Source: a phage
Length of the DNA: 64,000 bases
Reading direction: 5' to 3' (one strand)
Sequence record: PZ166176.1
Positions 2,014 through 58,983 of this stretch are shown here, one piece after another. How positions within the stretch are numbered: the first letter of the stretch is position 1; every line of letters begins with the position of its first letter. The translations under genes were made by a program, and so were the position numbers. Below the pieces are notes generated by a model. It searched no databases. It had not been told where the DNA came from and worked only from the letters and a program-made list of their open reading frames with translations.

Positions 2014-2637
2014 ATGGGAATCCCTTTTGACTTAAAGCTTGGACCAAACAACGACCTCATCATGGACGATGGGGATTTGGTCCTCACCACAACCAGAACA
2101 GAAATTGCAGCACAAACTCTTGGGATAACTCTGAACACGTATCGTGGAGAGTGGTTTTTAAATACTAACTTCGGTGTTCCTTACTTACAAGAGATTATTG
2201 GTGTTGCTAGAAAGAAAGATATTGTAGACAGAATATTTTTAGCGGAGATTGCCAAAAACGTTTACATAGATACAATAAACAGTTATAAATCTGCTTACGA
2301 CATGGACCAACGTTATTACTCAATGACAGTTATGGTGACAGTTGGAGCAGATACAGTAACATCCATATTCAATACTCAACCTTCTGAAGAGTTTATTTAC
2401 CCTGAAGCTGGTGAAGACAATGCAGCGATCATTTGTGAAGCTTACAGTATTGTTGAGAATTCGAATAGACTTTATCGCTTTATCAACTTTGTTGGTTTGC
2501 CACGTGATACCTACTCTACTTGGTGGAATGAATGGTCTACAGAGTCAGCAGGGGAAAGAATCATGGTTAACGAAAAAGGTGATGCATTAGCTACAAACAA
2601 TAATTTCGGTATAACAGCTATGACAGGAGTAGAATAA
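2014..2637 (+). CDS. baseplate wedge protein (gp25 / gpW / XkdS-like)
   Basis: N-terminal FDLKLGPNNDLIMDDGDLVLTT...EIAAQTLGITLNTYRGEWFLNTNFGVPYLQEI fits the DL-x-GDL...GEW pattern of gp25/W-like baseplate proteins. Confidence 0.45.
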   Translation: MGIPFDLKLGPNNDLIMDDGDLVLTTTRTEIAAQTLGITLNTYRGEWFLNTNFGVPYLQEIIGVARKKDIVDRIFLAEIAKNVYIDTINSYKSAYDMDQRYYSMTVMVTVGADTVTSIFNTQPSEEFIYPEAGEDNAAIICEAYSIVENSNRLYRFINFVGLPRDTYSTWWNEWSTESAGERIMVNEKGDALATNNNFGITAMTGVE

Positions 2638-3110
2638 TGGCAGATTTAACTACGATCAAAGTTTCTGATCTTACACAAACAACCTCTGTATCTGATACAG
2701 ATTTCTTTGTAACAGATCAGGCTGGAATAACAAAGAAGACTTCTTTGAAAGTGCTGTTGAGTGGTGCAGGGGTAACTAGAAACCGTTTAAATGCACGTGG
2801 AACAGTAACTAGCACCTTGGCATTAGATATTAGTTCAGCAGAATATTTTTCGGCAACTTTATCTTCTGCAACATGCACAATTAGTTTTACTAATATTCCA
2901 GTAGCAACGAATGCAGTTTTAAACTTTACTTTAGCTTTGCGTCAAGGAAGTGGCGCAAATAAAGTCGTATGGCCTTCTTCTGTAAAATGGAGTTTTGGTC
3001 GTTCCCCAGTTTTGAGTTATCGTCAAGGTGCAACAGACACTTTTGAGTTTATCAGTTATGATAATGGTGCAACTTGGACAGGTAGCTTAGTTTTAGCAGG
3101 AGTTATTTAA
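2637..3110 (+). CDS. hypothetical virion protein
   Basis: 157 aa ORF with ATGA-type overlap inside the baseplate operon. Confidence 0.45.
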   Translation: MADLTTIKVSDLTQTTSVSDTDFFVTDQAGITKKTSLKVLLSGAGVTRNRLNARGTVTSTLALDISSAEYFSATLSSATCTISFTNIPVATNAVLNFTLALRQGSGANKVVWPSSVKWSFGRSPVLSYRQGATDTFEFISYDNGATWTGSLVLAGVI

Positions 3111-10152: not shown

Positions 10153-10464
10153 ATGAACGAGATGTTCTCACAAGGTGGTAAAGGTTCAACTGGAATCTTA
10201 ACCAATAAACAAGCAGTAGCCCGTCACTTTGGAGTTAAACAATCTGAGGTTGTTTACTTCTCAGTTGGTGCACTGCTTGATGGGTACAAAGTTATCTATG
10301 ATAAGGAGACGCAAAGGGCGTATTCCCTACCTGCTGATATTGCCCCAGGTACTATTGCCATTAGTCTTAGTGCTGCCGGAGTATTAGTTCACTCTGCGGG
10401 TAATGTGGACCTTGGGGAATTAGCTGTATCTCGTGATTTAAAAAGTAATGAGAACGCACTATGA
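10153..10464 (+). CDS. hypothetical protein
   Basis: 103 aa ORF with RBS, between tailspike and baseplate genes. Confidence 0.4.
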   Translation: MNEMFSQGGKGSTGILTNKQAVARHFGVKQSEVVYFSVGALLDGYKVIYDKETQRAYSLPADIAPGTIAISLSAAGVLVHSAGNVDLGELAVSRDLKSNENAL

Positions 10465-17700: not shown

Positions 17701-17842
17701 AATAGACATTGCAGATCCAATTGTAACGCCTACAAGTGCTGGAGTTAGAATTAAAACCATACCTAATGATTCCAGTAATGTTTCTGTAGGTAATACTGCG
17801 GTTATTCGCCCAACGCCAGTAGTAGATGTGCCAACAACCTAA
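14789..17842 (+). CDS. tailspike protein with beta-helix (candidate polysaccharide depolymerase)
   Basis: 1017 aa; shares the SDTLETSGGLGPNAWV motif with the other fibre genes; long Gly/Asn/Val-rich repeats typical of pectate-lyase-like folds. Confidence 0.6.
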   Translation: MATFPTYPATSLEQGVDLVIFSSNQLHDVINGSATESIETESGLIPTLRKALVDNFFFKSPLDWAQGTNETVFNQLRYFQNGVLSGYYYAPNATLVNPIPMQGTPVGDNNWVLWGLKTEQLATEVTPWVYSGATGYETVISPPYIFDSAIVTINGVIQVLGEAFRIEDSKIILSEPLGHDPATGLPNKLFAYIGKIVASADTDPNLENRLVSLETKTEELTESMDKVPLQAIARKYGLLDDEVAYATAGQSLTGIKALYDPVAQSSYTLPPNITGTLTSLSVSGVMTYSGGSVDLSALAVERGQFVHLPTSFGNNVTLTAKNQTIGRGAGRYRWAGSLPKSILASDTLETSGGLGPNAWVLTNTEGLLTPRGGTYNDLFDVVYLSEFANNTTTYTTPEAAFQAALLAAKASKSKILDAYGCDMTFTTSSFDIQDITLRGGVFRGQRDYRVQNATVEGTTFRNSRVMYWGGAVRMFDCLWDGAPRAGQVGSLVFQGNPISGTFEIDNCTFKNGLYGILQQGTGEPVTRGVFRNLTFMDMQGDAIELNVINKHYDDGCVIENIYLSNIDGTNAPIPLSNWGIGIGVAGKGPYGYGIPDDQYCKNITIRNVFAKRCRQIVHVEVGRNISIENIHGDPDQTVSVGTGLATGAVVMYGSKDFTIDGVYGEPKTDGSTLASNIRMIYLEWGTNAVLDEEGNPVVPAQGRPSNPCFNYSVRNIHTKTGRVFAGVSAGPGYENRVSFENIRCAALQLFGIASWLSMSNITCNIFDCVGQPESGPGTFYDGFFRREKSVLEMVNVNCYPDGKTMVTGRPQWSRCRYSDIHRVNCNVEANMYTNIAGGIGAIVGTTGKVYYLEPNPSRNIDGMHFPTGKEFDKGDMIVKADNTFFLVTTSGAYIPDIPAFGIRATQAGDTFLTQNLTPNGTATNASWLYHYPLSAGTRIRIPGAGVGGADLDTVITRAPYQDNDTWTNPVKIDIADPIVTPTSAGVRIKTIPNDSSNVSVGNTAVIRPTPVVDVPTT

Positions 17843-17903: not shown

Positions 17904-19928
17904 ATGAATTTAACAAGACCTAATAGTGCGATAGCCGATCTGGTAGAAGCTACTTATCGAAAACGTCGCAGCTTTGAGGCAGGTTTTACATTACGTAATT
18001 CCCGTGAAGTTTTGCTGTTAGCAGCAGAAGGGAATTATTACCAATGGAAAGGAACTTTTCCTAAAGTTGTTCCAGCAAACTCTACGCCAGCCACCACAGG
18101 TGGTATTTCTTCCCTTGCATGGCAAAGTGTTGGGACCGCTGATGATATAGCAATTATCAATGCCAAGTTTACGGCAATGCAGCAACAGATTGATGATCTG
18201 TCGGAAACAATACCTGAAGCTGGTAAATCGGCTTATCAGATCGCACTTGATAATGGTTTTGTTGGAACAGAAGCACAATGGCTTGCTTCTTTGAAAGGGG
18301 ATACTGGTGCTCAACTTAATATTAAAGGATCATTAGCAAACACTAGTGAACTACCATCCACAGGTAACGTTGCAGGGGATGGTTATATCGTAGGTGATGT
18401 AATCTACGCTTGGGATGGTTCTGTTTGGAAACTTATTTCTTCTCTTGGGCCAGAAGGTAAATCAGCTTACGAGGTATGGTTGGCAGATGGTAATACAGGA
18501 TCTGTTTATGATTTTCTTACCTCTATAAAAGGTGATAAAGGTGATGTTGGTCCTACAGGGCCACAGGGAGCACCTGGTGTTAACGCCAACGGTTTTGATT
18601 ATCGTGGGGATTTGCCTTCTACAAGTAACTTACCACAACCAAACTCTGAAAACGTAAGTCAAGCTTATTCTATCAATGGTAATCTTTATGTCTCTAATGG
18701 GACAGCTTGGGTCAACATGGGTAATATTGTTGGTCCTCAAGGTCCACAAGGTGAGGCAGGTAAAGACGGTCTTGATGGAACAGATGGAGATGAAGGGAAG
18801 TCTGCATATCAAAGTTGGCTGGATGCTGGTAATGAAGGGACAGAAGTAGATTTTATTGCCTCACTTAAAGGTCCAAAAGGAGACAAAGGTGATCAAGGAG
18901 AGCGAGGTCCACAAGGTGAACTAGGTCCACAAGGACCAGTGGGTGCAACAGGATCAGGCTTAGATATTATCGGGGTTCTGAACAGTGAAGCTGAACTTCC
19001 TCCTACCGGAGAAGTAGGTGATGCATATAAAATTAATAATGATTTATATGTTTGGGTTCAAGATGCTACGGAATGGATGAATGTTGGCAGTCTTGGAGGA
19101 ACATCAATTACAGCTAAAGGTCATGTTCCGAACAGTGAAGCTCTCCCTGTTTATAATAACTATGGCGATGCCTACTTAACTGAAGACACTAGTAATCTTT
19201 ACATCTATACCTACGATCAAGACACCAATTCCGCATCTTTTGTTGACATGGGAAGTATTAAAGGCGACAAAGGTGAAAAAGGGGATAAAGGAGATAAGGG
19301 TGATCCTGGAACAAACGGAACCAACGGTACTGATGGGACCAACGGTAAGGACGGCGCACAGTGGTTTGTAGCAACAACTAATCCAGTCGCAGGAGACGGT
19401 GTTATCAATGATTACGCCTTCAATACTACCACTGGAGCAGTGTTCAAGAAAACAGATTCTTCTACTTGGACACTTATAGGAACTCTTCCTAGTATACCAG
19501 AAGCACCTCAAGACGGCTTGACGTATGGTCGTTCTGATGGGAACTGGATTGAAATATCAGGATCAGATCCTACGGAAGCTATAACACCAACTAGAGTTAC
19601 AGCAGGTTTCATGGAACTTGAAACAACTACTGCCAACTCTGGAGCATCTTGGACCCCTTCTGGAACTTCCAATATGTATGTTGTTACAGTAACTGACGCT
19701 CTGACAGTTGGAGCATGGCCTGGTGTCACTGGCTCTACAAAGCCTAAAGCGTTTTCAGCAATGATTTATTTGATTCAAGATACAACGGGACACACGGTTA
19801 CACTAGATGCGTCTTATGGAGCACTGAATGATACAGAAATAGCAACTACTGCTAACGCAGTAACAATTTTGCAATTAACGTATCCTGGTGTGGGTAATGT
19901 CGTGGACATGGTTGTTGTAACACGATAA
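17904..19928 (+). CDS. tail fibre protein with phage tail-fibre repeats and collagen-like Gly-X-Y tracts
   Basis: 674 aa; three copies of GKSAY-x-WL-x-GN-x-G...SLKG-x-KGD and Gly-X-Y runs (GPQGPQGEAGKDGLDGTDGDEG; GDKGEKGDKGDKGDPGTNGTNGTDGTNGKDG). Confidence 0.7.
   Translation: MNLTRPNSAIADLVEATYRKRRSFEAGFTLRNSREVLLLAAEGNYYQWKGTFPKVVPANSTPATTGGISSLAWQSVGTADDIAIINAKFTAMQQQIDDLSETIPEAGKSAYQIALDNGFVGTEAQWLASLKGDTGAQLNIKGSLANTSELPSTGNVAGDGYIVGDVIYAWDGSVWKLISSLGPEGKSAYEVWLADGNTGSVYDFLTSIKGDKGDVGPTGPQGAPGVNANGFDYRGDLPSTSNLPQPNSENVSQAYSINGNLYVSNGTAWVNMGNIVGPQGPQGEAGKDGLDGTDGDEGKSAYQSWLDAGNEGTEVDFIASLKGPKGDKGDQGERGPQGELGPQGPVGATGSGLDIIGVLNSEAELPPTGEVGDAYKINNDLYVWVQDATEWMNVGSLGGTSITAKGHVPNSEALPVYNNYGDAYLTEDTSNLYIYTYDQDTNSASFVDMGSIKGDKGEKGDKGDKGDPGTNGTNGTDGTNGKDGAQWFVATTNPVAGDGVINDYAFNTTTGAVFKKTDSSTWTLIGTLPSIPEAPQDGLTYGRSDGNWIEISGSDPTEAITPTRVTAGFMELETTTANSGASWTPSGTSNMYVVTVTDALTVGAWPGVTGSTKPKAFSAMIYLIQDTTGHTVTLDASYGALNDTEIATTANAVTILQLTYPGVGNVVDMVVVTR
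18213..19352 (+). repeat. in-frame coding repeats (tail-fibre repeat units and collagen-like triplets)
   Basis: Repeated peptide units seen in the translation of 17904..19928; the antisense ORF 19217..19408 is an artefact of this repeat. Confidence 0.6.
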
Positions 19929-32195: not shown

Positions 32196-32474
32196 TTAAA
32201 ATGGTTCGTTAGTCTCCATCATATATTCTGCTTCTAGTTCTTCCATATGCTTTCTAAATTGGAAAGCAATTTCTGCTACAGTTACATTTAAATCTTTTTC
32301 AAAAACTTCTGTAGAGCCTTCATAAAAACGAATACCGTCAATTAAAAGCCCTCCGTGGTAATCCCAATCACTTTCACGAGAAAGCGGGTTAGGCTCTTCA
32401 TAATAGTAATCCACCTCCACAACTAAGGCTTTCCCGTTACGAGTGGTGTATTCAAAATCAAAAGTGTTAATCAT
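32196..32474 (-). CDS. hypothetical protein
   Basis: 92 aa acidic ORF. Confidence 0.4.
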   Translation of the reverse strand: MINTFDFEYTTRNGKALVVEVDYYYEEPNPLSRESDWDYHGGLLIDGIRFYEGSTEVFEKDLNVTVAEIAFQFRKHMEELEAEYMMETNEPF

Positions 32475-33418
32475 TATAGCTCCTCAAATAAAAGTCTACG
32501 ACGCTCATTCAACACATCAATGTGATAATGAGTCCTGACATACTTAGCTAATGCTAATCCTTTCTCCATGCAAACATCGGGAGCACTTAATAAGTATTCC
32601 GTAATATCTTTCCACTCGGAAGGTGTTTCAGCAAAGAATAACAAATCTTTAAACTCTTGTGTATGATAATTCTCACGAGGAGAACAGATCAAAGGTAAAC
32701 CCTTAGCACCTGCCTCAAGAATTTTAAGATTGCTTTTTGCATTATTAAACACGTTATCAATCAATGGCGCAAGACTGATTTGATGACCATCGTAAGATTC
32801 CATGTAGTTGGCATATGGTCTTACACCTTCATAAACACAAGTTGGTGCTACATTTTCTCTGATTACAGACCATTCACGACTACTTAAAACTTCAGAATCC
32901 CTACGAAAACCACATATTGTAAGATCTTTACCAAAATCGGGCAAGATAGCCAAATCTTGTTTATGTGTTTCACTTCCAGCCCAGACTAATGGAGTTTTGG
33001 AGTAGCGATCACGGGTCAACACAAATTGACCTTCATCATAAGGAAGTCCATTAGGGATTATGTGCACATTATCATTGTATTGTGAAAGTTCAACTTGCAA
33101 GGCAGGTGTCGTAGTTGTAACAAGATCACTGTGCTCTAAAAACCATTTTAAATGTTCACGAATACCTGATTCAAAAATACCTTCTAACATGTGTCCTTTT
33201 GGAATAACTAAAGAGTCATCCAAATCCATAACCATTTTAAAGCCTAGGTTTTTAAGGGCTAAAAAGCCCTCTTTACCTTTTGTTGGCACTCCGTTAAAAA
33301 CGAAAACGTTGTATTTAGGTTGTGAAGAGAACTGCCTTGAGTAAGGCAGCACTACCCTATGGAAATCGCAGACACTATAATTGATTCCGTTACGATTGTC
33401 AAGAATTATTTGTCCCAT
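32474..33418 (-). CDS. glycosyltransferase, GT-B-like (paralogue 1)
   Basis: 314 aa; paralogue of 33426..34373 (shared VWAG...SNLKILEAGAKG-x-P-x-CS); the LEAGAKG-P motif resembles the GT-B C-terminal motif. Confidence 0.45.
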   Translation of the reverse strand: MGQIILDNRNGINYSVCDFHRVVLPYSRQFSSQPKYNVFVFNGVPTKGKEGFLALKNLGFKMVMDLDDSLVIPKGHMLEGIFESGIREHLKWFLEHSDLVTTTTPALQVELSQYNDNVHIIPNGLPYDEGQFVLTRDRYSKTPLVWAGSETHKQDLAILPDFGKDLTICGFRRDSEVLSSREWSVIRENVAPTCVYEGVRPYANYMESYDGHQISLAPLIDNVFNNAKSNLKILEAGAKGLPLICSPRENYHTQEFKDLLFFAETPSEWKDITEYLLSAPDVCMEKGLALAKYVRTHYHIDVLNERRRLLFEEL

Positions 33419-33425: not shown

Positions 33426-34373
33426 CTACAAACTTTCAATAACCTGGCGTCGCAACTCATTTGCATCTGCCAGATTATAATGTGTTCGAACATGTTCAGC
33501 CAAGAACAAGCCACGATCTTCCCGATAGTTTGGATTGCGAAGAAGCTTAACAATTTCGTAATGCCATTCTGCTTTGTTCTCTGCGTAAGCAACAGCACGA
33601 GCATCTACAGGGTTAAAATAAGGTAATACCTTAGAACAAACAATCGGAATACCCTTTGCTCCAGCTTCTAGGATTTTGAGATTACTTTTACAATTATTAA
33701 AATCATTATCTACCAAAGGAGCTATAGCAATAGCATGACTTTCGTAAACACTCATGTAATTATCTAAATCTTTTACAGCAGCTTTATATTTAGCATTTGG
33801 TAAATTTCTGCGAATCTTAATCCACTCTTGTCCCGTGATGCTCTGCGATGCTTCATATCCCGCAATAGTAAGAAGTTCATCATCGAAAGTATTAGAGACT
33901 AGTCGTAAATCGGGTTCGTGACTAGCACCGCCAGCCCATACAACAGGGGTACCGGATGAACGATCATTTGACAAAGTGAATTGTCCACTATCAAAAGGAA
34001 GTGCATTTCGGATCACAACAACATTCCTATTTAAGTGACGGATCTTATATGCCAAGTATTCCGTAGTCACAATAACCACATCAGCAAGCTTAACCATAGC
34101 CACAATAGCATGAGTGTTTGACTCGTATAAACTTGCTAAATAATGCTCTGGATTAAGTTGGTAAAAATCATCTAAATCTACAACAACCTTAACACCTTGA
34201 CGTTTCAAAGATAAAACGTATTCTGCACCTTTAGAGTGGATACGGTTAAACACAACAATATCTTTCTTAGGTTGAAAATTATTGTTGTTAAATGGCATAA
34301 CAATACGATGATAGTCACAACCGCTATGAGGTTTTGCATCAATTTTTAGTTTAGACCATTTTTTATTTGACAT
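33426..34373 (-). CDS. glycosyltransferase, GT-B-like (paralogue 2)
   Basis: 315 aa; co-linear similarity to 32474..33418 (HRIVMPFNN, VVDLDD, VWAGGASHEPDL, KSNLKILEAGAKGIPIVCS). Confidence 0.45.
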   Translation of the reverse strand: MSNKKWSKLKIDAKPHSGCDYHRIVMPFNNNNFQPKKDIVVFNRIHSKGAEYVLSLKRQGVKVVVDLDDFYQLNPEHYLASLYESNTHAIVAMVKLADVVIVTTEYLAYKIRHLNRNVVVIRNALPFDSGQFTLSNDRSSGTPVVWAGGASHEPDLRLVSNTFDDELLTIAGYEASQSITGQEWIKIRRNLPNAKYKAAVKDLDNYMSVYESHAIAIAPLVDNDFNNCKSNLKILEAGAKGIPIVCSKVLPYFNPVDARAVAYAENKAEWHYEIVKLLRNPNYREDRGLFLAEHVRTHYNLADANELRRQVIESL

Positions 34374-36940: not shown

Positions 36941-37543
36941 TTATGGACATTCATACCATTCTTTTTTACCACCGAAGGCCATCACCACATCACAAATATC
37001 CAGACCAGCTTTACCTACACCATATGCTTTCAGCTTCCATTCCCCATCTTCACGGACCAAGGAAGCCACGTGGCAGATTGTGTTGCCAGCTACTTCAGGA
37101 GCCAGGAAGTCAAAATCCAGAATTTCCACATTGCGCTCGGAGTCGAAGATTTTAAGCATACCTTCAGAAGCATGACCAAAACGTTTCAGACCTGTATCAT
37201 CATCAATGGTCAGAACAAAGGCAATCTCTTGTGCATCAGGAGAGATTTTAGCTAGAGTAATATCAATCTGCTCCATGCTGCCAGTTCCATCACGAACATC
37301 GTCACCAGCGAAGGTAGAACGTTCAGGATCAAACTTGTTAGCATAGCAAACCAGATGACGTGCAGACAGCATTTCAGGATTGCCAGCGGCATTGTGACGA
37401 CAAACCAGTGCACTTACATCCAGATCCAGTTTAGAATCAGATTTCCAAGAGAATTCAAGGCGCAGTTCTTTCAGAGCCGGAGCAACTTTCTTCAGGGAAA
37501 TTTTTTCGCTAGAGCCTTTTTTCAGGGAAATTTTATCAGTCAT
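36941..37543 (-). CDS. terD: TerD-domain protein (tellurite resistance TerD/TerE/TerZ family)
   Basis: 200 aa; co-linear with E. coli TerD as recalled from memory: ISLKKG...ISLKK vs VSLSKGGNVSLSK; LDLDVSAL vs FDLDASAF; GDDVRDGTG...IAFVLTI vs GDNRTGEGDG...IIFVVTI; EDGEWKLKAYGVG vs HNGEWKFRAVGQG. Confidence 0.85.
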   Translation of the reverse strand: MTDKISLKKGSSEKISLKKVAPALKELRLEFSWKSDSKLDLDVSALVCRHNAAGNPEMLSARHLVCYANKFDPERSTFAGDDVRDGTGSMEQIDITLAKISPDAQEIAFVLTIDDDTGLKRFGHASEGMLKIFDSERNVEILDFDFLAPEVAGNTICHVASLVREDGEWKLKAYGVGKAGLDICDVVMAFGGKKEWYECP

Positions 37544-37558: not shown

Positions 37559-37828
37559 TTATTTAAGTGTAATACCAGTTACAGTCAATTCTACTTCCAA
37601 AAGCTTAGATGTGTTTTGGATTGATACTAATTGTGCATGATGGTTTAGTTCTACAGCAGAACAATCATTTTCCCCATCATCTACTTTTAAATAAACAATG
37701 ATTTCACTAAGGTCTAAACCATTTTCGTCAAATGCATTTTCATAGACGAAAGTATCTCCTACATCCAAATCTTTAATGGTAAGGCATCGTTTATTTACTT
37801 TTTGCTCATCAATTTCGAAGTTTAACAC
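37559..37828 (-). CDS. hypothetical protein (paralogue of 38850..39194)
   Basis: 89 aa; shares DLDVGDTFVYENAFDENGLD and a C-terminal LEVELTVTGITLK with the 114 aa ORF. Confidence 0.45.
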   Translation of the reverse strand: MLNFEIDEQKVNKRCLTIKDLDVGDTFVYENAFDENGLDLSEIIVYLKVDDGENDCSAVELNHHAQLVSIQNTSKLLEVELTVTGITLK

Positions 37829-38057
37829 TTCTTCCTCCTAATGTTATCTCCGGTTTGTATATACGAAGAATTATAGCATTTTCATTTTCTTTGTCAACCC
37901 ATTCTTCATAATCGGGCCATACATGAATCTCTACTCTACTTACAATATCTTCCATTCGCACAGTCCCAATGAAATACTCTTTGAGACTGCGCATAATGAA
38001 AGCTTCTCTCTCGCGCCAATAATTTTCTATGACTTGAGAGGCAAGCTCGTCGATCAT
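37809..38057 (-). CDS. hypothetical protein
   Basis: 82 aa ORF, ATGA-coupled. Confidence 0.4.
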   Translation of the reverse strand: MIDELASQVIENYWREREAFIMRSLKEYFIGTVRMEDIVSRVEIHVWPDYEEWVDKENENAIILRIYKPEITLGGRSVKLRN

Positions 38058-38848
38058 TTTTTAGCACCTACTTTAACAACCCACTCTCCGAACTCTTCAG
38101 ATAAGAGTTTGTCATAAAGCTCTGAATCTGTCAAGTCTAAATCTTTAATGCCAATAAAACCAACATTATCATAAGCATTTGCCAGTTCTTTCAGGAAGCC
38201 GAACTTCTCATTACCAACGCCAACCATGAACCAATAAATAGGTTTATTCTTATTCTCTTCGATAAGACGACGAACAGCACTAGGATCACCATTCTCACCA
38301 TCCGTCTGGAAGAATACAACACCAGGGGTAACGTCAGCACCTGGTTCAGATACAGCTACAACTTTTTCACGCTCTACAGACACTGTTTCAGTTTTACCAA
38401 GCAGACGATTAAAGAAGCCTTTCTTTGGAGCCTCCTCTTGTACCACTTGTTTAGTGGTAATATATTTAGTAACAGTGCCAAAATACTCATCGTAGATATC
38501 CGCCATTACAGGGGCGTAATTTGTTCCACCTCCGATACGAACATTACGCATACATTTGCCAACATAGTCATCGTAAACATCTGCTGTTGCTGGAGTAAGC
38601 TCTTGGGAACTCGTATTGAAGGCCCACATATCAATTTGTTGATTATCGTCGAACAGCATACCAAAAGGAAGCAGTTTACCTACAAAATCACTCACTACCC
38701 CACTAGAATATAGACCATGCATACTACCAGAAATATCTAGAGCACATGCTACACGAAGAACAATCTTACCTTCATTCAGGTTCTTATTCTTTTTCAGAGA
38801 GAAAGCAAGGTTTTCTTGACGTTTTTTCAGGCTGATTTTCTCGGACAT
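38054..38848 (-). CDS. von Willebrand factor A domain protein (TerY-like)
   Basis: 264 aa; MIDAS motif ACALDISGSM and FFQTDGENGD; N-terminus MSEKISLKK echoes the TerD N-terminus. Confidence 0.6.
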   Translation of the reverse strand: MSEKISLKKRQENLAFSLKKNKNLNEGKIVLRVACALDISGSMHGLYSSGVVSDFVGKLLPFGMLFDDNQQIDMWAFNTSSQELTPATADVYDDYVGKCMRNVRIGGGTNYAPVMADIYDEYFGTVTKYITTKQVVQEEAPKKGFFNRLLGKTETVSVEREKVVAVSEPGADVTPGVVFFQTDGENGDPSAVRRLIEENKNKPIYWFMVGVGNEKFGFLKELANAYDNVGFIGIKDLDLTDSELYDKLLSEEFGEWVVKVGAKK

Positions 38849-38849: not shown

Positions 38850-39194
38850 TTATTTCTCCTTCTTAAGTGTAATATTGGTAACTTCTAAATCTACTTCCAC
38901 CATATTTGTATCTGGTGGGATGCAATGAGTATAGCCTCGTTGTGCTAGTGATCCATTAATACAAATCGCACTGTTTGTGGAATTTTTAATGAACACCAAG
39001 TTACGGTAGGTATCCAACCCTGCGTCTTCATAGGCATCATAATACATGAATGTGGCCCCTACGTCAAGATCTTCGAAAGCAATAGGTAAATCCTGACTTT
39101 TTTCTTCTTGAATATTGAATCTAAACACGCATACCTCCTCTACCAATTTTGAAGCCCAAATCGTAAGCTTCCTTAGTGATCTTTTGTAACTCAC
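38850..39194 (-). CDS. hypothetical protein (paralogue of 37559..37828)
   Basis: 114 aa; DLDVGATFMYYDAYEDAGLD and VDLEVTNITLKKEK; start uncertain (overlaps the upstream ORF). Confidence 0.4.
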   Translation of the reverse strand: MSYKRSLRKLTIWASKLVEEVCVFRFNIQEEKSQDLPIAFEDLDVGATFMYYDAYEDAGLDTYRNLVFIKNSTNSAICINGSLAQRGYTHCIPPDTNMVEVDLEVTNITLKKEK

Positions 39195-40053: not shown

Positions 40054-40250
40054 TACTCCTCCTCCTCATTGAAGTCAATATCTGCAAGGAGTTCGAATTT
40101 ACGGAAGTTACGACAACCTTCATAAATATAACAATCACGACAAACTGCTAGAACACTTGCGGGATATATACCTCCCATCGGTGCGAATCGTTTTTCGTCA
40201 TCATAACGGACACCAATGTCTTCATCAATTATATAGATACGGATTCTCAT
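40053..40250 (-). CDS. hypothetical small protein
   Basis: 65 aa with Cys pair CRDC...C. Confidence 0.4.
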   Translation of the reverse strand: MRIRIYIIDEDIGVRYDDEKRFAPMGGIYPASVLAVCRDCYIYEGCRNFRKFELLADIDFNEEEE

Positions 40251-41359
40251 TTACCAAGCCCTCGTTTCACAGCAGCTACCATCCCGTCTTCCAGAGATTG
40301 AACTTCATTAATATAATCAACACGAGCAGCACGGGCTTCCGTATTGATGCGGTTAGTTTCTTCCAACATCTTAACCAAGTTTTCCTGATCGTGACGCAGA
40401 GTTTCAATATCCAACACTTGACGGTTAGCCAGTGCTGCTGCTTCGATCTGATTCTGTGTGGCAAGATCGCTACCCAGTTTAATTGCCAGGTTAAATTCAT
40501 CAAGAACGTTATTCTGCGTCTCTGCTGCTTTCATTTGACGTAAGCTCTCGATATACATTGAGAAGTTAGCAGAGTAAGCAGGAATAACATTATTTACTAT
40601 GTTACGCGCAGATCGCATTAAGCTTGCAGAAACTTTTTGCATACCTTGTACACGCGGTCCCATTTGGACACACAGTAGGCGCAATGCTTTTAAATCTGCA
40701 ATACGAATCTCCAGAAGATCCAAAGTATCTCGGATCACTTGTCGCTGTTCTACTGCATCTTCTGGAAGAGCAGCCAAAGCTTGTTCTTCTTTTTCATAGG
40801 TTGCTGTTAGAAGCTGCATATCTCGGTTCAAACTTGCAGCATATTGTCCAATAGCTTGATGCAGCTTTTCAAGATATACCAAGGAATCTTCTTCTTTGCG
40901 AATATCCATTTGAAGGTTCTTTACCAACTCTTCAATACGGTTATTAACATTATCAAACTCCCCGAACAGGTCTTCTTTCATACCCATAACTTTTTTAATG
41001 AGTTTAGTAATACCCTTGCTTTGTTTAATAGAGTTTGGATCAAGTTGTTTTGCCTGTTTAATCAAAGCTGTGAGTCGTTCACTCATCTGATCGCCTTGAT
41101 TACTACGTTGATGTTTTAACACCTCGGCATTCAAGGAACGCAAGGTTGTTCCTGCCTCTGCCCCAATCTCTTCAATCTCTTGTCGGGTCATAGAAGGCAA
41201 AACTGGAACTTCTTGCGGTGCCGCTGGTGCATAAACAGGACTGGCATCTAACACGCTTGGAGCGAATACAGATTTACTTGCATCTGTTGTTGCAGCGAAT
41301 ACACTCATTTCAGACTTCTTCTGACCACCAGTAGCTGCTTTTAAAAATGGACTTGTCAT
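40247..41359 (-). CDS. TelA-like toxic anion resistance family protein (candidate)
   Basis: 370 aa all-helical protein; segments LIKQAKQLDPNS, QMGPRVQGMQ...NVIPAYSANFSMYI and LDIETLRHDQENL resemble TelA/KlaB as I recall them; same strand as TerC and TerD. Confidence 0.45.
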   Translation of the reverse strand: MTSPFLKAATGGQKKSEMSVFAATTDASKSVFAPSVLDASPVYAPAAPQEVPVLPSMTRQEIEEIGAEAGTTLRSLNAEVLKHQRSNQGDQMSERLTALIKQAKQLDPNSIKQSKGITKLIKKVMGMKEDLFGEFDNVNNRIEELVKNLQMDIRKEEDSLVYLEKLHQAIGQYAASLNRDMQLLTATYEKEEQALAALPEDAVEQRQVIRDTLDLLEIRIADLKALRLLCVQMGPRVQGMQKVSASLMRSARNIVNNVIPAYSANFSMYIESLRQMKAAETQNNVLDEFNLAIKLGSDLATQNQIEAAALANRQVLDIETLRHDQENLVKMLEETNRINTEARAARVDYINEVQSLEDGMVAAVKRGLGK

Positions 41360-41946
41360 TCTTCATTCTCCTCTTCTGCATCTCTTATATATGGTGAAAC
41401 ACCGTACTCTTTAGCTACTTTAACCCAATCATCCCATTTATACAACCATAATTTTCCTTCAGTTCCTTCTTTATCTGATTTCAACCACATGTTAGGTTGC
41501 TTGCCTGGGTACATGCGATTAGGTTTACGATTATAACCTCTAACACATCTTGTCGCAAACCTATCTACCAGAACAAGAACATATTTATATTCGTGGTTCA
41601 ACGGCTCTTTGGAAGTGGCTTTAGGATTAGCCCCTAACTCTGCTGCCAGTTTTTGCCAATGAGCACCGTGTCTACTAAACTTACCCATACAACCATCAAT
41701 AGCATGAGCAATTTCGTGCTTCATTGTATCCACGATCATATCTCTTGTGGAGTTCTTATGCAAGTGCCAATTTACAACAACAATTTTATCTCGGTAGTTG
41801 CACCAACCGAAAGAGTTATTCACTTTGTTTCTAACACAAGCTTTATATCCTGCTTCACGTAACATGTTGTAGTAAACAGGAAAATCTTCTTTTATTTCCT
41901 GCATCACTTCCCACCACAAGAGTTGCAAGTCTCTCTCGGTATGCAT
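41356..41946 (-). CDS. SprT-like zinc metallopeptidase domain protein
   Basis: 196 aa; HEIAHAIDG...HGAHW zinc-binding motif after an N-terminal helical region. Confidence 0.5.
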   Translation of the reverse strand: MHTERDLQLLWWEVMQEIKEDFPVYYNMLREAGYKACVRNKVNNSFGWCNYRDKIVVVNWHLHKNSTRDMIVDTMKHEIAHAIDGCMGKFSRHGAHWQKLAAELGANPKATSKEPLNHEYKYVLVLVDRFATRCVRGYNRKPNRMYPGKQPNMWLKSDKEGTEGKLWLYKWDDWVKVAKEYGVSPYIRDAEEENEE

Positions 41947-43571: not shown

Positions 43572-44546
43572 TTAAACAGCAGCTTCTTCTTTTTCAGGGA
43601 AGATAAAGCTTGCAATAACACCAAGAGCTAATGTGCTTAGAACAATCATCAGACTTACGTTAGGGGAAATATCATGCGGGAGGAATGACCATTTGGCATG
43701 AAGTGTTTCACCGAACGGGTGATACATAAGTTTAGCACCGACAAACACCAGAACCACAGCAACAGCTTTCTCTAAGTGAACCAGATATTTCACAGCTACA
43801 CTTAACACAAAGAAAAGTGCACGTAAACCAAGAACAGCCATCAGCATTGCAGAATAAACTAGCAGAGGTTCTTGTGTCACACCGATCACAGCCGGAACTG
43901 AATCAAAAGAGAAGACAATATCTGTAAGCTCAATAACAAACACACAAAGAAGAGCAGGAGTTGCATATTTAATACCATTCTTAATGGTGATGAACTTTTC
44001 ACCATCCAGTGCATTGTGCACAGGCAGAACTTTACCTACTAAACGAACAGCCCAATGCTTAGAGTAATCAATATCCTCTTCTTCGTCACCACCTTTGATG
44101 ATAGCCACGGCAGACCAAGCTACAATCAAACCGAACAACACTTGGACCGACCAATGAAGGTTAAACAAAGCGGTCCCTGCTGCAACAAAAATACCTCGGA
44201 AGACAATGGCTCCTGCAATCCCCCAAAGTAAAATCTTATGTTGGAGATGTGTGCTCTTAATTCCAAAGCTTGCAAAAATTGCCATGAACACCATCAGGTT
44301 ATCTACAGAAAGACTCTTTTCCAACACATAGCCACTTAGGAAAAGCGCGGCAAACTCTTTACCATGTTCTACCCAAATGAATGCGTAATATCCTAAAGCT
44401 AAAGCAATCCAAAAAACAGACCAAAGCAAAGCAGATTTAATTCCAATTTCTTTATTCTCTTTATGACCAAAGAAATCGATACCAATAGACAATGCCAAAA
44501 TACCAACTAAAACAACTACATCAATAATTGGGAAACCAAGTTGCAT
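43572..44546 (-). CDS. terC: TerC family integral membrane protein
   Basis: 324 aa, multiple TM helices; LEKSLSVDNLMVFMAIF and ELTDIVFSFDSVPAVIGVT...LGLRALFFVL match the two TerC-family signature blocks. Confidence 0.8.
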   Translation of the reverse strand: MQLGFPIIDVVVLVGILALSIGIDFFGHKENKEIGIKSALLWSVFWIALALGYYAFIWVEHGKEFAALFLSGYVLEKSLSVDNLMVFMAIFASFGIKSTHLQHKILLWGIAGAIVFRGIFVAAGTALFNLHWSVQVLFGLIVAWSAVAIIKGGDEEEDIDYSKHWAVRLVGKVLPVHNALDGEKFITIKNGIKYATPALLCVFVIELTDIVFSFDSVPAVIGVTQEPLLVYSAMLMAVLGLRALFFVLSVAVKYLVHLEKAVAVVLVFVGAKLMYHPFGETLHAKWSFLPHDISPNVSLMIVLSTLALGVIASFIFPEKEEAAV

Positions 44547-44859: not shown

Positions 44860-45333
44860 TTAAAGTTTATAAATAGTCACATCGTGACCTGTTTTTACTA
44901 AAGTTTCTTCAATCATCACTTGGATGATAGCCCAATTACCTCCAGCATATCCAGCGCCAATCATAGGTAAGCCGATCTTACATTTTTTGTCACGGAGAAG
45001 CAAATCGTTAGCCATAGCTATTAGTGCATCGTAAAGTGCATCATAGTCCAACTGACGACCTTTAGCATTATATCCGTAACGGTATTGCCCGTATAGATTA
45101 TATACCAAAGGGTCTGATTGTTCGTCTGGCACCCCTAAACTAAAAGAACCTAACTTACTTTGATCACCAGCCATTGTGTCTAAATCTGCCGCATATGCAT
45201 AAGGGAATGCTCGTTTAATTTGCGGAGCAATTCCTGCTCCCATATTACACATACAATTGCAACAATGAGCAATAACAGTTACTTCACCTGCTTTAGCGGC
45301 ATCAATAAGATTACCTGTTTTCATTTTAAGCAT
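44860..45333 (-). CDS. macro domain protein (ADP-ribose binding/processing)
   Basis: Start moved to the ATG 6 nt after AAGGAG; GNLIDAAKAGEVTVIAHCCNCMCNMGAGIA and IGLPMIGAGYAGGNW match the macro domain Gly-rich blocks. Confidence 0.6.
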   Translation of the reverse strand: MLKMKTGNLIDAAKAGEVTVIAHCCNCMCNMGAGIAPQIKRAFPYAYAADLDTMAGDQSKLGSFSLGVPDEQSDPLVYNLYGQYRYGYNAKGRQLDYDALYDALIAMANDLLLRDKKCKIGLPMIGAGYAGGNWAIIQVMIEETLVKTGHDVTIYKL

Positions 45334-45346
45334 TTTTAGCTCCTTA

Positions 45347-46174
45347 TTACAGAATGTGTTGTTTTGTGTAACGATCCAAGAATTCAAAGTTTTCAGCATA
45401 CTTTGAAATTCGGTTGTAACCTTCTCCCAAACATCCGAAGAAAAGTTGCTCTACATAGTAGTGTGGCAATTGGCTAAGAATGATTTTGAAGTCTTCGTGA
45501 TTTTGGCCCATAAGATACTTAATAGGACGAACAAGGCACTGTGCATCACGTTCTTCATTAATCATTTTAACAAACGCTTCTGGTGTATTAATGTAGTTAA
45601 AATTCAGTTTAGCTTCTGTATCTGCTTGATTACCTTCATATTTTGCAAAATATAAGAAGTAAACATCATTTTTAACTTGATTTTCATCAAGGATCTCAAT
45701 CAGTTTGTCTTCATGAGTTCCAGTGATATTTACATCATCAATAAACACAAGCTTCTTATCACCCCAGAATTCTTTGTTGCAGTAGAATGTATCCCCATCA
45801 ATAAGTTTCTTACGACTAGCTTTATCCAAGAAACCATAATCGTTGATATAGCTAACTTTACGATGAATAATATCCAGTTCTGCTGAACGACCTTGATCAT
45901 ATTGTGATTGCAACATATTAAAGTAATTAATAAAATGATCTGTCATCATTGTTGCAGCATTATGCACATGGTTGTAAGGAGAAGGGATGATAACAAATTG
46001 TTCCCCAATATGTTTCATTGCCACTTGAGCAAAAAACTGAAGTGCCAATTCTTTACCCATACGACGCGCAGCCTGGTTACTACCAAATTTCAATTTTGAA
46101 TAATCTTTGATATCAAAAGTAGCAGTTTCCAGGTCATCAAATTTATTTGCAAAAATTTGAGTTTGATTACGCAT
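45347..46174 (-). CDS. phosphoribosyltransferase-domain protein (type I PRTase fold)
   Basis: 275 aa; KKLVFIDDVNITGTHEDK matches the type I PRT motif (hydrophobic x4-DD-x3-TGxT). Confidence 0.55.
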   Translation of the reverse strand: MRNQTQIFANKFDDLETATFDIKDYSKLKFGSNQAARRMGKELALQFFAQVAMKHIGEQFVIIPSPYNHVHNAATMMTDHFINYFNMLQSQYDQGRSAELDIIHRKVSYINDYGFLDKASRKKLIDGDTFYCNKEFWGDKKLVFIDDVNITGTHEDKLIEILDENQVKNDVYFLYFAKYEGNQADTEAKLNFNYINTPEAFVKMINEERDAQCLVRPIKYLMGQNHEDFKIILSQLPHYYVEQLFFGCLGEGYNRISKYAENFEFLDRYTKQHIL

Positions 46175-46823
46175 TTACAATTTCTCCTTTTTTAAGTTTC
46201 TCTAGTAAGTCGTTAGGGTTCTTAATATGACAGAAGTTAAATCCTAAGTCAACACATTTTCCATCATATTCTTCACTATCGCCTACGTGCAATACTTCGT
46301 GCCCTAACAGAGGGATCGGAGAATACGTGAGCGTGCGAGCAAAGAATCGCGGATCTGGTTTACAAAGTAAAGCTTCATCCGAGAAATGGGTGAACTCAAA
46401 ACAATTCCAACTATCAAACTTACAAGCACGACGCAGGATATCCCCTGATATGAAGTTGGTATTGCTCTTAATACTCAAATCATAACGCCCCGAAAGATAC
46501 AGCAAGTACATCGGCAGATCCACGGCTACGTGTGGTGGAAACTTAAGGAACCACTGTTCACACTCGAAACGAAGCTTTGCAGACTTCCAAGGCGTTATCC
46601 CAAGTTCAGAACCAAGTCTTTCCCAGGCGTATGCTGCACACTCGGCTTTGCCTTGAAGTGCTGCATTATCCAGTTCCTTTTTGATCTTCTTATAAGCTGC
46701 TCTTGCTTCCACTTCCGTAATATCTCCATATTTTGCGATAGTCCAGGCTCGCATATCTGCGTAATTGGAGTTTGCTGTGATCAGTGTGTTCCATACATCA
46801 AAAGAGATATGTTTAATAGTCAT
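46167..46823 (-). CDS. HAD-superfamily hydrolase (phosphatase-like)
   Basis: 218 aa; motif I ISFDVWNTL, KPDP motif and motif IV HVGDSEEYD. Confidence 0.5.
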   Translation of the reverse strand: MTIKHISFDVWNTLITANSNYADMRAWTIAKYGDITEVEARAAYKKIKKELDNAALQGKAECAAYAWERLGSELGITPWKSAKLRFECEQWFLKFPPHVAVDLPMYLLYLSGRYDLSIKSNTNFISGDILRRACKFDSWNCFEFTHFSDEALLCKPDPRFFARTLTYSPIPLLGHEVLHVGDSEEYDGKCVDLGFNFCHIKNPNDLLEKLKKGEIVNA

Positions 46824-54311: not shown

Positions 54312-54722
54312 TTAGTTTACATCGTTTAGAGCATTACCAATCTTTAAGATAATAACATCATTAAGAGCTTCTTCTCCATTAAGACCAGAGAAAGCAGGAG
54401 TAACGAAAGTTACCATATAATAATGGTCTTCTTGTAGGATTGCGATAACGCCGTCTAGTTTAACATCTCCTGTGAAACGAAAAACTTTCAACTTTTGTTC
54501 TAAAGGAAGATCTCCTTCAACATTTAAAACCATATCTCCGACACCAAACTTTTCTGCCCCGATGTAGATGTAAGCTTGGTCATCTTTTTTATGATAATAC
54601 AATGTTGCTTGTTTGTCTTGTAGTGTTGTGATACCAAACACATCTACATCAATAATATTTTTCAAAAATTCTCCTCCCAAATCCAATAATTGTCTACATA
54701 AGTAGGATGCCTTTTGTCCCAC
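54312..54722 (-). CDS. hypothetical protein
   Basis: 136 aa ORF; start uncertain (track start overlaps the upstream gene by 61 nt). Confidence 0.4.
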   Translation of the reverse strand: MGQKASYLCRQLLDLGGEFLKNIIDVDVFGITTLQDKQATLYYHKKDDQAYIYIGAEKFGVGDMVLNVEGDLPLEQKLKVFRFTGDVKLDGVIAILQEDHYYMVTFVTPAFSGLNGEEALNDVIILKIGNALNDVN

Positions 54723-55030
54723 TCTTTTCTAGCCCAAGCTACGGCTGCTACCAATACATCTCCATGACAAGGTTGAGGCGAGCAGAAGCAAACTAAATCT
54801 TTTCCTTCTAACTCTAATAAATCTTCAAGAGTGATCTTACCACAACGAATTTGCTCCCACAACCACTCTTTATACCTTTGTATGGTTGATCCTCGTGGTT
54901 CATCATCTTTTAACTTAAAAGGATTTGCAAACTTAGAGGCTTTTAGTCCCATATGTGGCATTGCTCTACCAATATAAACAGCACCCTCTGGGATTGTTTT
55001 GCCTAAATGGTAAAAGTTTAATACCTTCAT
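54662..55030 (-). CDS. conserved small protein with Cys/His motif (possibly DUF4326-like)
   Basis: 122 aa; KFANPF...YKEWLWEQI...GKDLVCFCSPQPCHGDVL. Confidence 0.45.
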   Translation of the reverse strand: MKVLNFYHLGKTIPEGAVYIGRAMPHMGLKASKFANPFKLKDDEPRGSTIQRYKEWLWEQIRCGKITLEDLLELEGKDLVCFCSPQPCHGDVLVAAVAWARKEWDKRHPTYVDNYWIWEENF

Positions 55031-55031: not shown

Positions 55032-55394
55032 TTAACCTAAACACATACGTGCGATCAGACCCTGGATGAGTTTATCTGCTTCTTCGCGATCATAGTCGGT
55101 ATCTTCTATACCACCATCTTCGTCACGATAAACTTTACCTTCTAGGTACCCAGCATCGATCAAACCAATAATCAAATCGAACTGCCAGCAAGAGTTACCG
55201 AAAGGGCGTTTTCCACTGAAGCTATCTTCTTCTTCCCAAAGTGTAGAGAGCAGTCGTCTGAAATATTCACGCACAGTAACAGTGCCAAGATCATCGTCTT
55301 CAAAAACAACATCTAAAGCATCCGGTTCAGCTTTCTCTACAACAGGCACATAACGTTGACCATTAATAACAACATCTACGATTGTTTCTCTCAT
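55032..55394 (-). CDS. hypothetical acidic protein
   Basis: 120 aa ORF. Confidence 0.45.
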   Translation of the reverse strand: MRETIVDVVINGQRYVPVVEKAEPDALDVVFEDDDLGTVTVREYFRRLLSTLWEEEDSFSGKRPFGNSCWQFDLIIGLIDAGYLEGKVYRDEDGGIEDTDYDREEADKLIQGLIARMCLG

Positions 55395-55753
55395 TTTTCC
55401 TCCTTTTTGTATTCAATGAACATATCTGCATAGTAAGCTTTACGTTCTTCAAATTTAGCAGGGTTTACCACAATGAACAACACCTTTCTATTGTCTTGTG
55501 GTTCTTTGACTGTAATATATAAATCTTTTGTGCAATAGAAACCTGTGGCTTTGTAAGCGTCACCCCAATTATCCACTCCACGATCTATACGATCAAACTT
55601 GCAGTTATACTTTTTATCATCCGCCTGGTAGACAGCTTCACCACCATACCAAGTGAAGAATTGGCTACCTTCCACCCCAATCTTGAAACCATCACGAGCG
55701 GCTGTAGCATTGGTGGCAATCATCAACATCAGGACACAAAGTAGCTTTTTCAT
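55391..55753 (-). CDS. secreted/periplasmic protein
   Basis: 120 aa; N-terminal signal peptide MKKLLCVLMLMIATNATAA. Confidence 0.5.
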   Translation of the reverse strand: MKKLLCVLMLMIATNATAARDGFKIGVEGSQFFTWYGGEAVYQADDKKYNCKFDRIDRGVDNWGDAYKATGFYCTKDLYITVKEPQDNRKVLFIVVNPAKFEERKAYYADMFIEYKKEEK

Positions 55754-56059
55754 TTAGAATTCCTCTTCAGTCTTCTGTCGGTTTTTGAAGAATACTACGT
55801 CATATACCTCTCCGTAACCATCGTTTACACAGAACATAATAAAACGATCATCTTCTGCTGTTGGTGCGCGATGTTCAAGTTCAAAACTTTCAATAAAACC
55901 GCGTGAATTTACGTAGTAGATTTCATCCTCACCAGAGAACATCCAATCCCTGTCTATCAGATAGAAAGCTAAACTCACAGGCGACAACTCATCCTTCACA
56001 GAATCATTGTACAGCATGTGGGCTGCAACTGCCAAACTTAAAGTCGTATTGTGCTGCAT
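55754..56059 (-). CDS. hypothetical protein (tandem paralogue A)
   Basis: 101 aa; shares LSLAV, YELEYRAP-x-EDD, IMF/YxVN-GxGE-x-VVF with 56059..56370. Confidence 0.45.
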   Translation of the reverse strand: MQHNTTLSLAVAAHMLYNDSVKDELSPVSLAFYLIDRDWMFSGEDEIYYVNSRGFIESFELEHRAPTAEDDRFIMFCVNDGYGEVYDVVFFKNRQKTEEEF

Positions 56060-56370
56060 TACATCTCCTCGTCGGACTTCAAGGCTTTAGAGAATACTAC
56101 ATTAAACGTTTCACCGCAACCATTATTAACATAATACATGATGTAATTGTCATCTTCGTCTACAGGCGCACGATACTCCAGTTCATAACTGTATAAATTA
56201 GAGTCACTTGTGCAACCCTGTGGATACCAAAAGTAAAGTTCACCACAAGATTCTACCCACTTAAGACCAGTTCTATCTTCAAACACCAATGTAGAAGGAT
56301 TTTCTGAATCTTTCACAGCTTCTTCATACTGTTGATGTACCATGACTGCTAATGATAATGTACTCATCAC
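56059..56370 (-). CDS. hypothetical protein (tandem paralogue B)
   Basis: 103 aa; paralogue of 55754..56059. Confidence 0.45.
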   Translation of the reverse strand: MMSTLSLAVMVHQQYEEAVKDSENPSTLVFEDRTGLKWVESCGELYFWYPQGCTSDSNLYSYELEYRAPVDEDDNYIMYYVNNGCGETFNVVFSKALKSDEEM

Positions 56371-56570
56371 GCCTCCAAATAGTGTTTACAAATGACAAAA
56401 CGCCATGTTTGTTTATAATAGTCTCTTTTTTCAAGAGCCTCTTTGTAAGAGGGTATACGTTGCGACAGAAGCATCCATTCACAATCTGCACCCATTCTTC
56501 CATAAAGCGCGTAACGGATGTTACTTTGTTTATCTCCCATAAATGCCTCCTTAATCTTGTTTACAAGCAT
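56367..56570 (-). CDS. hypothetical small protein
   Basis: 67 aa ORF. Confidence 0.4.
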   Translation of the reverse strand: MLVNKIKEAFMGDKQSNIRYALYGRMGADCEWMLLSQRIPSYKEALEKRDYYKQTWRFVICKHYLEA

Positions 56571-56583
56571 ACCCTCTAATTAG

Positions 56584-56781
56584 TTACACTTTTTCCCAAG
56601 TACCAAAAGCACAGGAAGGGTAGATTCCAACTTGAGGGTTTCCGTTATCATCTTTGAAAGTAAAACTGTTGTTGTCTTTATCAAGAACTGTAGAATAAAT
56701 CTTACCAACAGTAACGCAGTTGGAAGCTTGACCCAGTTCAGTGAGAGTAAGACATTTCATTTTCTGTTTCTTTGTAGCCAT
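56584..56781 (-). CDS. hypothetical small protein
   Basis: 65 aa ORF with AAGGAG RBS, downstream of a promoter candidate. Confidence 0.45.
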   Translation of the reverse strand: MATKKQKMKCLTLTELGQASNCVTVGKIYSTVLDKDNNSFTFKDDNGNPQVGIYPSCAFGTWEKV

Positions 56782-56811: not shown

Positions 56812-56841
56812 ATTCTACACAAAGAGCTTTGCACATGTCAA
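56812..56841 (-). promoter_or_regulatory. sigma70-like promoter candidate (TTGACA-18 nt-TAGAAT)
   Basis: On the - strand: TTGACA, 18 nt, TAGAAT, about 30 nt upstream of the ATG at 56781. Confidence 0.45.
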
Positions 56842-58283: not shown

Positions 58284-58429
58284 AAAACCTCCTCATAGTA
58301 AGGTAAAGCCTTGATCAGTTGTTCTGAAGTGCCATTTTGCACCCACGTAACACCCTTGTCAAGAGAAACATACCCTTTCTTATTGATAAATTTACGGAGA
58401 CAACCAGTGAACTTGTTTTTGTAGATCAT
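58280..58429 (-). CDS. hypothetical small protein (49 aa, not in ORF track)
   Basis: My translation: MIYKNKFTGCLRKFINKKGYVSLDKGVTWVQNGTSEQLIKALPYYEEVL; ATGA overlaps at both ends. Confidence 0.4.
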   Translation of the reverse strand: MIYKNKFTGCLRKFINKKGYVSLDKGVTWVQNGTSEQLIKALPYYEEVL

Positions 58430-58869: not shown

Positions 58870-58983
58870 TTGTTTTCTCCTTTTGTTTGGTAGGAGTTGA
58901 TCTTAACAAGATTAAAAAGTATGTCAATACTTGATCTGAAATTATTTTCAGGTATCATGTATGAACATTAACAAGAGAGGTAG
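58870..58983. promoter_or_regulatory. divergent promoter region between the - strand early block and the + strand block
   Basis: - strand TTGACA-16 nt-TAAGAT; + strand TTGATC-16 nt-TATCAT about 25 nt before the ATG at 58984. Confidence 0.45.

Follow-up and report, generated by a model that had tools for sequence, protein, structure and literature searches.

Two pairs of diverged paralogous small genes in a Phapecoctavirus genome, one in a hypervariable island and one in a Ter-type module

Two adjoining small genes in a phage sequence raise the questions of whether they arose by duplication, what their products might do and whether they mark a locus of conflict with the host, as had been proposed for them and for a second, similar pair. 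The window analyzed here comprises 64,000 nucleotides of sequence record PZ166176.1; the genes of pair 1 are called A and B, those of pair 2 C and D, and both pairs and their neighbors discussed below are encoded on the minus strand. A 4-kb stretch around pair 1 was 99.4% identical to Escherichia phage anhysbys and 94-99% identical to about 50 other Phapecoctavirus records, and the stretch around pair 2 showed the same pattern of matches. The window is thus a segment of a Phapecoctavirus genome (Stephanstirmvirinae; phAPEC8-like E. coli myophages of about 150 kb). Near-identical genomes have also been deposited as Campylobacter, Acinetobacter, Pseudomonas, Klebsiella or 'Dompiswa' phages, host labels that look doubtful for a genus of coliphages.

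Copy A occupies positions 55754..56059 (minus strand) and encodes a protein of 101 amino acids with a pI of 4.4. The maximal open reading frame of copy B, 56059..56370, encodes 103 amino acids from a GTG codon; since a GGAGG motif precedes the ATG at 56367 and orthologues are 102 amino acids long, B most likely extends from 56059 to 56367 (minus strand; 102 amino acids, pI 4.1). In BLASTP analyses A and B aligned over their full lengths with 44 identities in 103 positions (43%; E = 1e-21), and both gave full-length matches to the phrog_7812 profile, with E = 9.7e-17 for A (residues 4-100) and E = 3.6e-40 for B (residues 2-103). Similarity of the two therefore holds in formal alignment, as it does for pair 2 (see below), and the motifs first quoted as shared within each pair were recovered with small deviations. 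TLSLAV is common to A and B; B carries YELEYRAPVDEDD where the counterpart in A is FELEHRAPTAEDD, with FELEHRAP in A in place of YELEYRAP in B, and the C-terminal motif reads VNNGCGETFNVVF in B and VNDGYGEVYDVVF in A. Proteins of phi92-type phages, jumbo phages and metagenomes likewise match phrog_7812, and the signature of the family, V(D/N)NGCG(D/E)xYxVVFxK near the C-terminus, is kept by B, whereas A has a tyrosine in place of the near-invariant cysteine of the NGCG motif and a shortened loop. Profile searches among the 296 open reading frames of the window revealed no third member of either family and no cross-match between phrog_7812 and phrog_11278, the family of pair 2.

Are these genes expressed and maintained as functional units? 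All four are preceded by good ribosome-binding sites, their orthologues are annotated as coding sequences in many GenBank records, and their products have pI values of 4.1-4.4, with neither a signal peptide nor a hydrophobic segment evident in the sequence. Pair 1 is enclosed by two further small genes, up57 (56367..56540, minus strand; 57 amino acids, basic with pI 9.0, phrog_2381) and sec120 (55391..55753, minus strand; 120 amino acids, phrog_5474, with an N-terminal signal-peptide-like segment). The stop codon of up57 overlaps the start codon of B in a TGATG junction, B and A are joined by TAATG, A and sec120 by TAAATG, and in each of these genes the codons for the C-terminal glutamates double as the ribosome-binding site for the gene that follows. 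Judging from the overlapping stop/start junctions, up57, B, A and sec120 are probably translationally coupled. Pairwise dN/dS values, calculated over whole genes for pair 1 only, were 0.07-0.20 for orthologues (B against phAPEC8, ZCKP1 and nepoznato; A against ZCKP1), which marks A and B as genuine genes on which purifying selection acts. The ratio between the two paralogues is uninformative, as dS is saturated (dN 0.49).

In order to see how pair 1 is distributed, 50,697 phage records were searched by tblastn, with at least 60% identity required for B-type genes and at least 95% for A. B-type genes were present in about 71 Phapecoctavirus records, of which 36 also contained A (GenBank and RefSeq duplicates were counted in both cases). 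Where present, A is 96-100% conserved, and the B alleles of the genus range from 64 to 99% identity. Phages phAPEC8, ESCO5, ESCO13, ukendt, Schickermooser and nepoznato possess B without A; in phAPEC8 and nepoznato A is cleanly missing, and the junction of B with the gene that follows is again GACGAGGAGATGT(A/G)ATG. In all Stephanstirmvirinae examined the counterpart of B is a single-copy gene, with one syntenic copy each in phi92-like Justusliebigvirus, Citrobacter phage Tr1 and Klebsiella phage KP13-26, and jumbo phages of the Eneladusvirus type have a single gene for a distant phrog_7812 member. B is the gene that the subfamily retains in a single copy, and A is an extra, lineage-specific and optional one.

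The family itself is small. When 1.84 billion representative proteins were scanned in full with HMMER, 17 matches were obtained at E of 1e-3 or below; several long matches (P0015 and others), repeat proteins resembling the family only in an NGCG-like motif, were set aside as spurious. A word-indexed protein search returned 5-11 relatives only, and a scan of IMG/VR a single locus, from a near relative. Every match whose source could be identified came from a phage record or a phage-like contig, and the family therefore appears to be confined to phages. One metagenomic protein of 138 amino acids (P0021) combines a fragment of an HNH endonuclease (phrog_953) with the C-terminal half of the phrog_7812 domain, which suggests that, in some relative, a homing endonuclease was inserted or the gene call is chimeric.

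The nucleotide identity profile of the window against phAPEC8, ZCKP1 and nepoznato places pair 1 inside a hypervariable island (about 55398..56600) that holds up57, B, A and sec120. Identity in the flanks was 96-100% and dropped at sharp borders to 52-91% within the island, parts of which were missing altogether; no other hypervariable island was seen in the surrounding region, which is otherwise 96-100% identical between these phages. At the protein level, up57 of the window was 67, 72 and 89% identical to its counterparts in phAPEC8, ZCKP1 and nepoznato, respectively, while the corresponding values were 94, 80 and 65% for B and 56, 98 and 59% for sec120. Per-gene identities that differ in this way from genome to genome indicate that the modules of the island assort independently. 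Synonymous divergence between B alleles (dS from 0.4 to more than 1.3) lies far above that of the nearly identical flanks, so the diversity of the island is old and was brought in by recombination rather than generated recently. The sec120 gene is dimorphic, with the allele of the window in about 37 records and an alternative allele 55-60% identical to it; given that A was found in 36 records, A and the window-type sec120 allele form one cassette. The homologue of sec120 in phi92, gp204, is annotated with a signal peptide predicted by SignalP, and sec120 could be an envelope-acting factor, for example one of superinfection exclusion. Upstream of the row formed by orf65, up57, B, A and sec120, a consensus match to a sigma-70-like promoter is found on the minus strand at 56812..56841 (TTGACA-18-TAGAAT, 11 of 12 positions), and further minus-strand matches of this type lie at 58927..58900 and 58362..58334. 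The location of pair 1 in a leftward block of small open reading frames with such consensus matches makes early expression by the host polymerase plausible. A second indel was observed near the island, where a DUF4326 gene (54662..55030; 'NrdA-like' in relatives) is missing in nepoznato between flanks of 97-100% identity.

How did the second copy arise? In a neighbor-joining tree based on about 100 columns, in which the branch of A is long, A and all B alleles grouped together with 82% bootstrap support, to the exclusion of the members from phi92, Tr1, KP13-26 and the jumbo phages. This grouping favors a duplication inside the Phapecoctavirus lineage, and pair 1 would then represent a whole-gene tandem duplication specific for Phapecoctavirus that took place after the split from phi92-like phages. 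A different origin, possible although in our estimation rather unlikely, is that A came in by recombination, in one cassette with its sec120 allele, from some related phage outside the sample, the tandem appearance being due to juxtaposed homologues. Such an import would fit the all-or-none occurrence of a highly conserved A in linkage with one of two very different sec120 alleles, the clear recombination of island modules and the closeness of the identities between A and B (43%), B and the phi92 protein (42%) and A and the phi92 protein (35%). However, all other sampled lineages fall outside the group formed by A and the B alleles, the homology of A and B extends to their 5' (TLSLAV) and 3' (EE-stop-ATG) ends, as duplication of a unit would predict, and among the 1.84 billion representative proteins we encountered no lineage with an A-type gene as its only copy that might have served as donor. 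Import would in any case be compatible with duplication, as an old duplication within the lineage could have been followed by exchange of the cassette. Tandem duplication is the origin of pair 1 that we prefer.

An arrangement in phi92 suggests a partner for B. There, gp205 (160 amino acids; 2321..2803 of phi92 locus L006) is a fusion of an up57 homologue with a B homologue, its N-terminus matching phrog_2381 (E = 8e-18) and its C-terminus phrog_7812 (E = 3e-42), whereas in the window the two are separate cistrons that meet at the TGATG junction. Fusions of the gp205 type form a cluster of 142 sequences (P0008). The fusion hints that up57 and B may act together. Taken further, it could mean that B, and hence A, functions only as the partner of the basic up57 in a two-subunit complex, such as a regulator with its modulator, in which A would be an alternative subunit. 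Besides the in-frame fusion, the coupling of the two genes and the opposite charges of their products (pI 9.0 versus 4.1) would agree with such a complex, as would the presence of N-terminal extensions in other phrog_7812 members (P0018, P0019, P0020 and P0024). These extensions, however, are unrelated to up57; those of P0018 and P0019 were also compared with the protein encoded upstream in KP13-26, and no match was obtained. Moreover, up57 and B alleles do not co-vary but reassort independently, and the gene upstream of the family member belongs to other families elsewhere, namely DUF7296 in Tr1 and in two metagenomic relatives (Logan contigs), DUF7244 in KP13-26 and an unrelated protein in Yersinia phage fHe-Yen9-04. 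The differing neighbors exclude a universal partner gene for the family, and we consider an obligatory up57-B complex unlikely. Together with the unrelated extensions and the reassortment of up57 and B, they indicate that the phrog_7812 domain behaves as an independent module, frequently joined to partners that vary.

Pair 2 lies in a quite different setting. Copy C spans 37559..37828, as originally given (minus strand; 89 amino acids, pI 4.3), and copy D spans 38850..39128 (minus strand; 92 amino acids, pI 4.4). For D an end at 39194 had been proposed, as the list of open reading frames extends it by 22 codons (39121..39194) into an upstream gene for a protein of 187 amino acids; the shorter version is preferred since relatives annotate 279 bp, the PHROG match begins at residue 24 and a GTG codon with an AGGAGG motif is located at 39128. 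C and D aligned in BLASTP without gaps with 30 identities in 89 positions (34%; E = 3e-15), and the phrog_11278 profile matched both over their full lengths, with E = 2.6e-45 for C (residues 1-89) and E = 4.8e-50 for D (residues 24-114 of the maximal open reading frame). Of the shared blocks, C carries DLDVGDTFVYENAFDENGLD where the counterpart in D is DLDVGATFMYYDAYEDAGLD, and VTGITLK, which ends C, reads VTNITLK in D. Although both pairs had been described as tandem, only the genes of pair 1 are adjacent, whereas C and D are separated by a gene for a vWA-TerF-like protein (38054..38848, minus strand; PF10138, E = 1.6e-37) and by orf82 (37809..38057, minus strand; 82 amino acids, phrog_22387). 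The pair does flank the vWA gene, as had been noted, with D immediately upstream and orf82 and C downstream of it.

C is followed directly by a gene for a TerD-domain protein (36941..37543, minus strand; PF02342, E = 3e-28), and farther upstream of D, all on the minus strand, genes for TelA (40247..41359), an SprT-like protein (41356..41946), TerC (43572..44546), a Macro-domain protein (44860..45399), a PRTase_3 protein (45347..46174) and a HAD-like protein (46167..46823) are encountered. In the direction of transcription the order is HAD-like, PRTase_3, Macro, TerC, SprT-like, TelA, several small open reading frames, D, vWA-TerF-like, orf82, C and TerD. Based on Pfam matches to vWA-TerF, TerD, TelA, TerC, PRTase_3, HAD and Macro, the segment 36941..46823 constitutes a near-complete phage Ter-type (tellurite-resistance-like) module, which most relatives in GenBank have annotated only in part.

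Phage phi92 possesses one member of the pair 2 family, gp174, encoded upstream of the vWA gene, while TerD follows directly after vWA and orf82 is absent. As D occupies the same position and is more similar to gp174 (65-67% identity) than C is (37-38%), D is the ancestral copy, and C together with orf82, a combination present only in Phapecoctavirus, is a genus-level insertion between vWA and TerD. Two matching places per record were found in nearly every Phapecoctavirus record examined; the duplication of pair 2 is an older one and a fixed feature of the genus. Copy number across relatives, which had been named as a point to check, is thus variable for pair 1, with A in about half of the genus, but fixed at the genus level for pair 2. 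Phage phiWec179 (locus L015, 907..3100) has the same architecture in a divergent haplotype, in which amino acid identities to the window amount to 51% for D, 73% for vWA, 59% for orf82, 41% for C and 91% for TerD, the upstream gene for the 187-residue protein is missing, and no genes of the module evolve faster than C and D. D is always located upstream of vWA-TerF in Phapecoctavirus, phiWec179 and phi92. As phrog_11278 was found only within Stephanstirmvirinae, the co-occurrence of C and D with Ter genes could also be due to mere shared descent.

Structure prediction was employed in the search for functional relatives. The AlphaFold2 model for pair 1, based on an alignment of 13 sequences, reached a pLDDT of 82 and a pTM of 0.74 and consists of an N-terminal helix followed by a five-stranded antiparallel sheet (helix-plus-beta-meander). 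Foldseek comparison with viral models returned only members of the family and uncharacterized proteins of GAP32, phiPMW and nt-1, and the predicted fold of pair 1 appears to be an orphan. For pair 2 the AlphaFold2 model (pLDDT about 82) gave weak scores, at 4-15% identity, with SH3-like small beta-barrels such as the C-domain of ribosomal protein L2, KOW, FeoA and Tudor; such a generic predicted SH3-like small barrel would be uninformative about function or family membership. Scans of the four proteins and their neighbors with Pfam, NCBIfam and PADLOC gave no informative match for A, B, C or D, and sequence-profile searches of the PDB with both family alignments yielded only noise at E above 0.1. 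None of the four products contains a catalytic motif, and sequence, profile and fold searches detected no link of either family to a known counter-defense or host-takeover protein.

That the pairs are unimportant drifting ORFan duplicates, variable through relaxed constraint and neutral recombination and unconnected with any host conflict, might be thought from the dispensability of A in about half of the genus, the family size of 17 cluster representatives among 1.84 billion proteins, the lack of a known domain or fold relative and the loss of the conserved cysteine in A, but is improbable in view of the purifying selection on A and B, the syntenic single-copy conservation of B across Stephanstirmvirinae with further family members in jumbo phages, the confidently predicted compact folds, and the conserved ribosome-binding sites and translational coupling.

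Paralogous genes are in themselves nothing unusual in the genome to which the window belongs. All-against-all BLASTP, together with the adjoining pair 1, gave five sets of paralogues in the 64 kb, and duplicated small genes are ordinary for large phage genomes, many small paralogous ORFans being found in large lytic phages. Among these sets are a tandem pair of glycosyltransferase genes (32474..33418 and 33426..34373; 41% identity, E = 3e-75) and two sets of tail-fiber-like segment repeats on the plus strand, in which 10153..10464 resembles 14789..17842 and 8157..10103 resembles 17904..19928. Pairs 1 and 2 are true diverged paralogues that arose by gene duplication within Stephanstirmvirinae.

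Do these duplicates then mark an arms race, as the original prediction held? Part of that reading stands. The optional copy A, the hypervariable island and the fast evolution of C and D in phiWec179 are population-level marks often seen at conflict loci. The low pairwise dN/dS of 0.07-0.20, however, argues against strong ongoing positive selection across the whole pair 1 genes, and a homology link to conflict proteins was not obtained. The arms-race interpretation is therefore partly supported, in the form of old alleles shuffled by recombination and without raised dN/dS.

The explanation that we favor, and to which we attach moderate confidence as a whole, combines genuine duplications with functions that we infer, namely a host-takeover or counter-defense binder for pair 1 and Ter adaptors for pair 2. 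All four products would act stoichiometrically by binding another protein, which is the most likely role for proteins that lack catalytic motifs and are predicted to adopt compact, binding-type folds. Pair 1 would provide an early accessory binder for host takeover or counter-defense. This best guess, made with low confidence, draws on the size, charge and fold of the proteins, on where the genes lie and on their pattern in the population, above all on the early position, the allelic island and the fact that one copy is optional. Its allelic variants and second copy might widen or change target specificity, and up57, whether fused to it or encoded next to it, may take part in its action. For pair 2 our best guess is that both proteins would serve as small adaptors within the Ter module of the phage, in contact with its vWA or TerD protein. 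A bolder version, which we put forward as unlikely, takes up57-B-A-sec120 as an unrecognized specificity cassette of Stephanstirmvirinae, with phrog_7812 proteins as a new family of early inhibitors, of orphan fold, that act on a variable host target, and C and D as new SH3-like adaptors that tune the Ter system. If it were true, the target would be a defense system or a takeover target, and the exchange of alleles together with the optional A would determine the range of hosts that the phage is able to overcome. A 1.2-kb island with an optional duplicate, in otherwise near-identical E. coli phages that are candidates for therapy, offers a compact candidate for determinants of host range or counter-defense; the phi92 fusion suggests a partner protein for B, and with pair 2 a phage operon of the Ter type gains two small proteins that had gone unannotated.

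Deposited records already contain all four genes as hypothetical proteins, and PHROGs assigns them to families. Phi92 gp205 and gp174 and many 'hypothetical protein' coding sequences of Phapecoctavirus and Justusliebigvirus are orthologues of pairs 1 and 2, and each pair matches one family of 'unknown function', phrog_7812 or phrog_11278, over its full length and with strong E-values. A literature search on early genes, anti-defense and paralogues of Phapecoctavirus and Stephanstirmvirinae found nothing on A-D and no account of paralogy within one genome, of the polymorphic copy number, of the fusion in phi92 or of the hypervariable island. The island, the optional A, the phi92 fusion and the embedding of pair 2 among Ter genes are testable leads rather than discoveries.

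Two known systems offer themselves for comparison. Small acidic early phage proteins are known to inhibit host proteins, among them the DNA mimics Ocr and ArdA and other anti-restriction or anti-defense proteins. A-D show no sequence or structural similarity to characterized inhibitors of the Ocr/ArdA type, and their charge density is moderate; they resemble such inhibitors in their length of about 90-100 amino acids, their pI of 4.1-4.4, the early-type promoters nearby, the presence/absence polymorphism and the high allelic diversity. For pair 2, the closer comparison is with the Ter systems described for jumbo and related phages, for which a role in competition with superinfecting phages has been proposed (Iyer et al., 2021; PMC7824862). 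C and D are not among the Ter components of that study, are restricted to Stephanstirmvirinae and gave no profile match in Pfam, NCBIfam or the PDB to the Ter families (TerB, TerC, TerD, TelA, vWA-TerF/TerY), whereas the component list of the module in which they are embedded matches that of the phage Ter systems described there.
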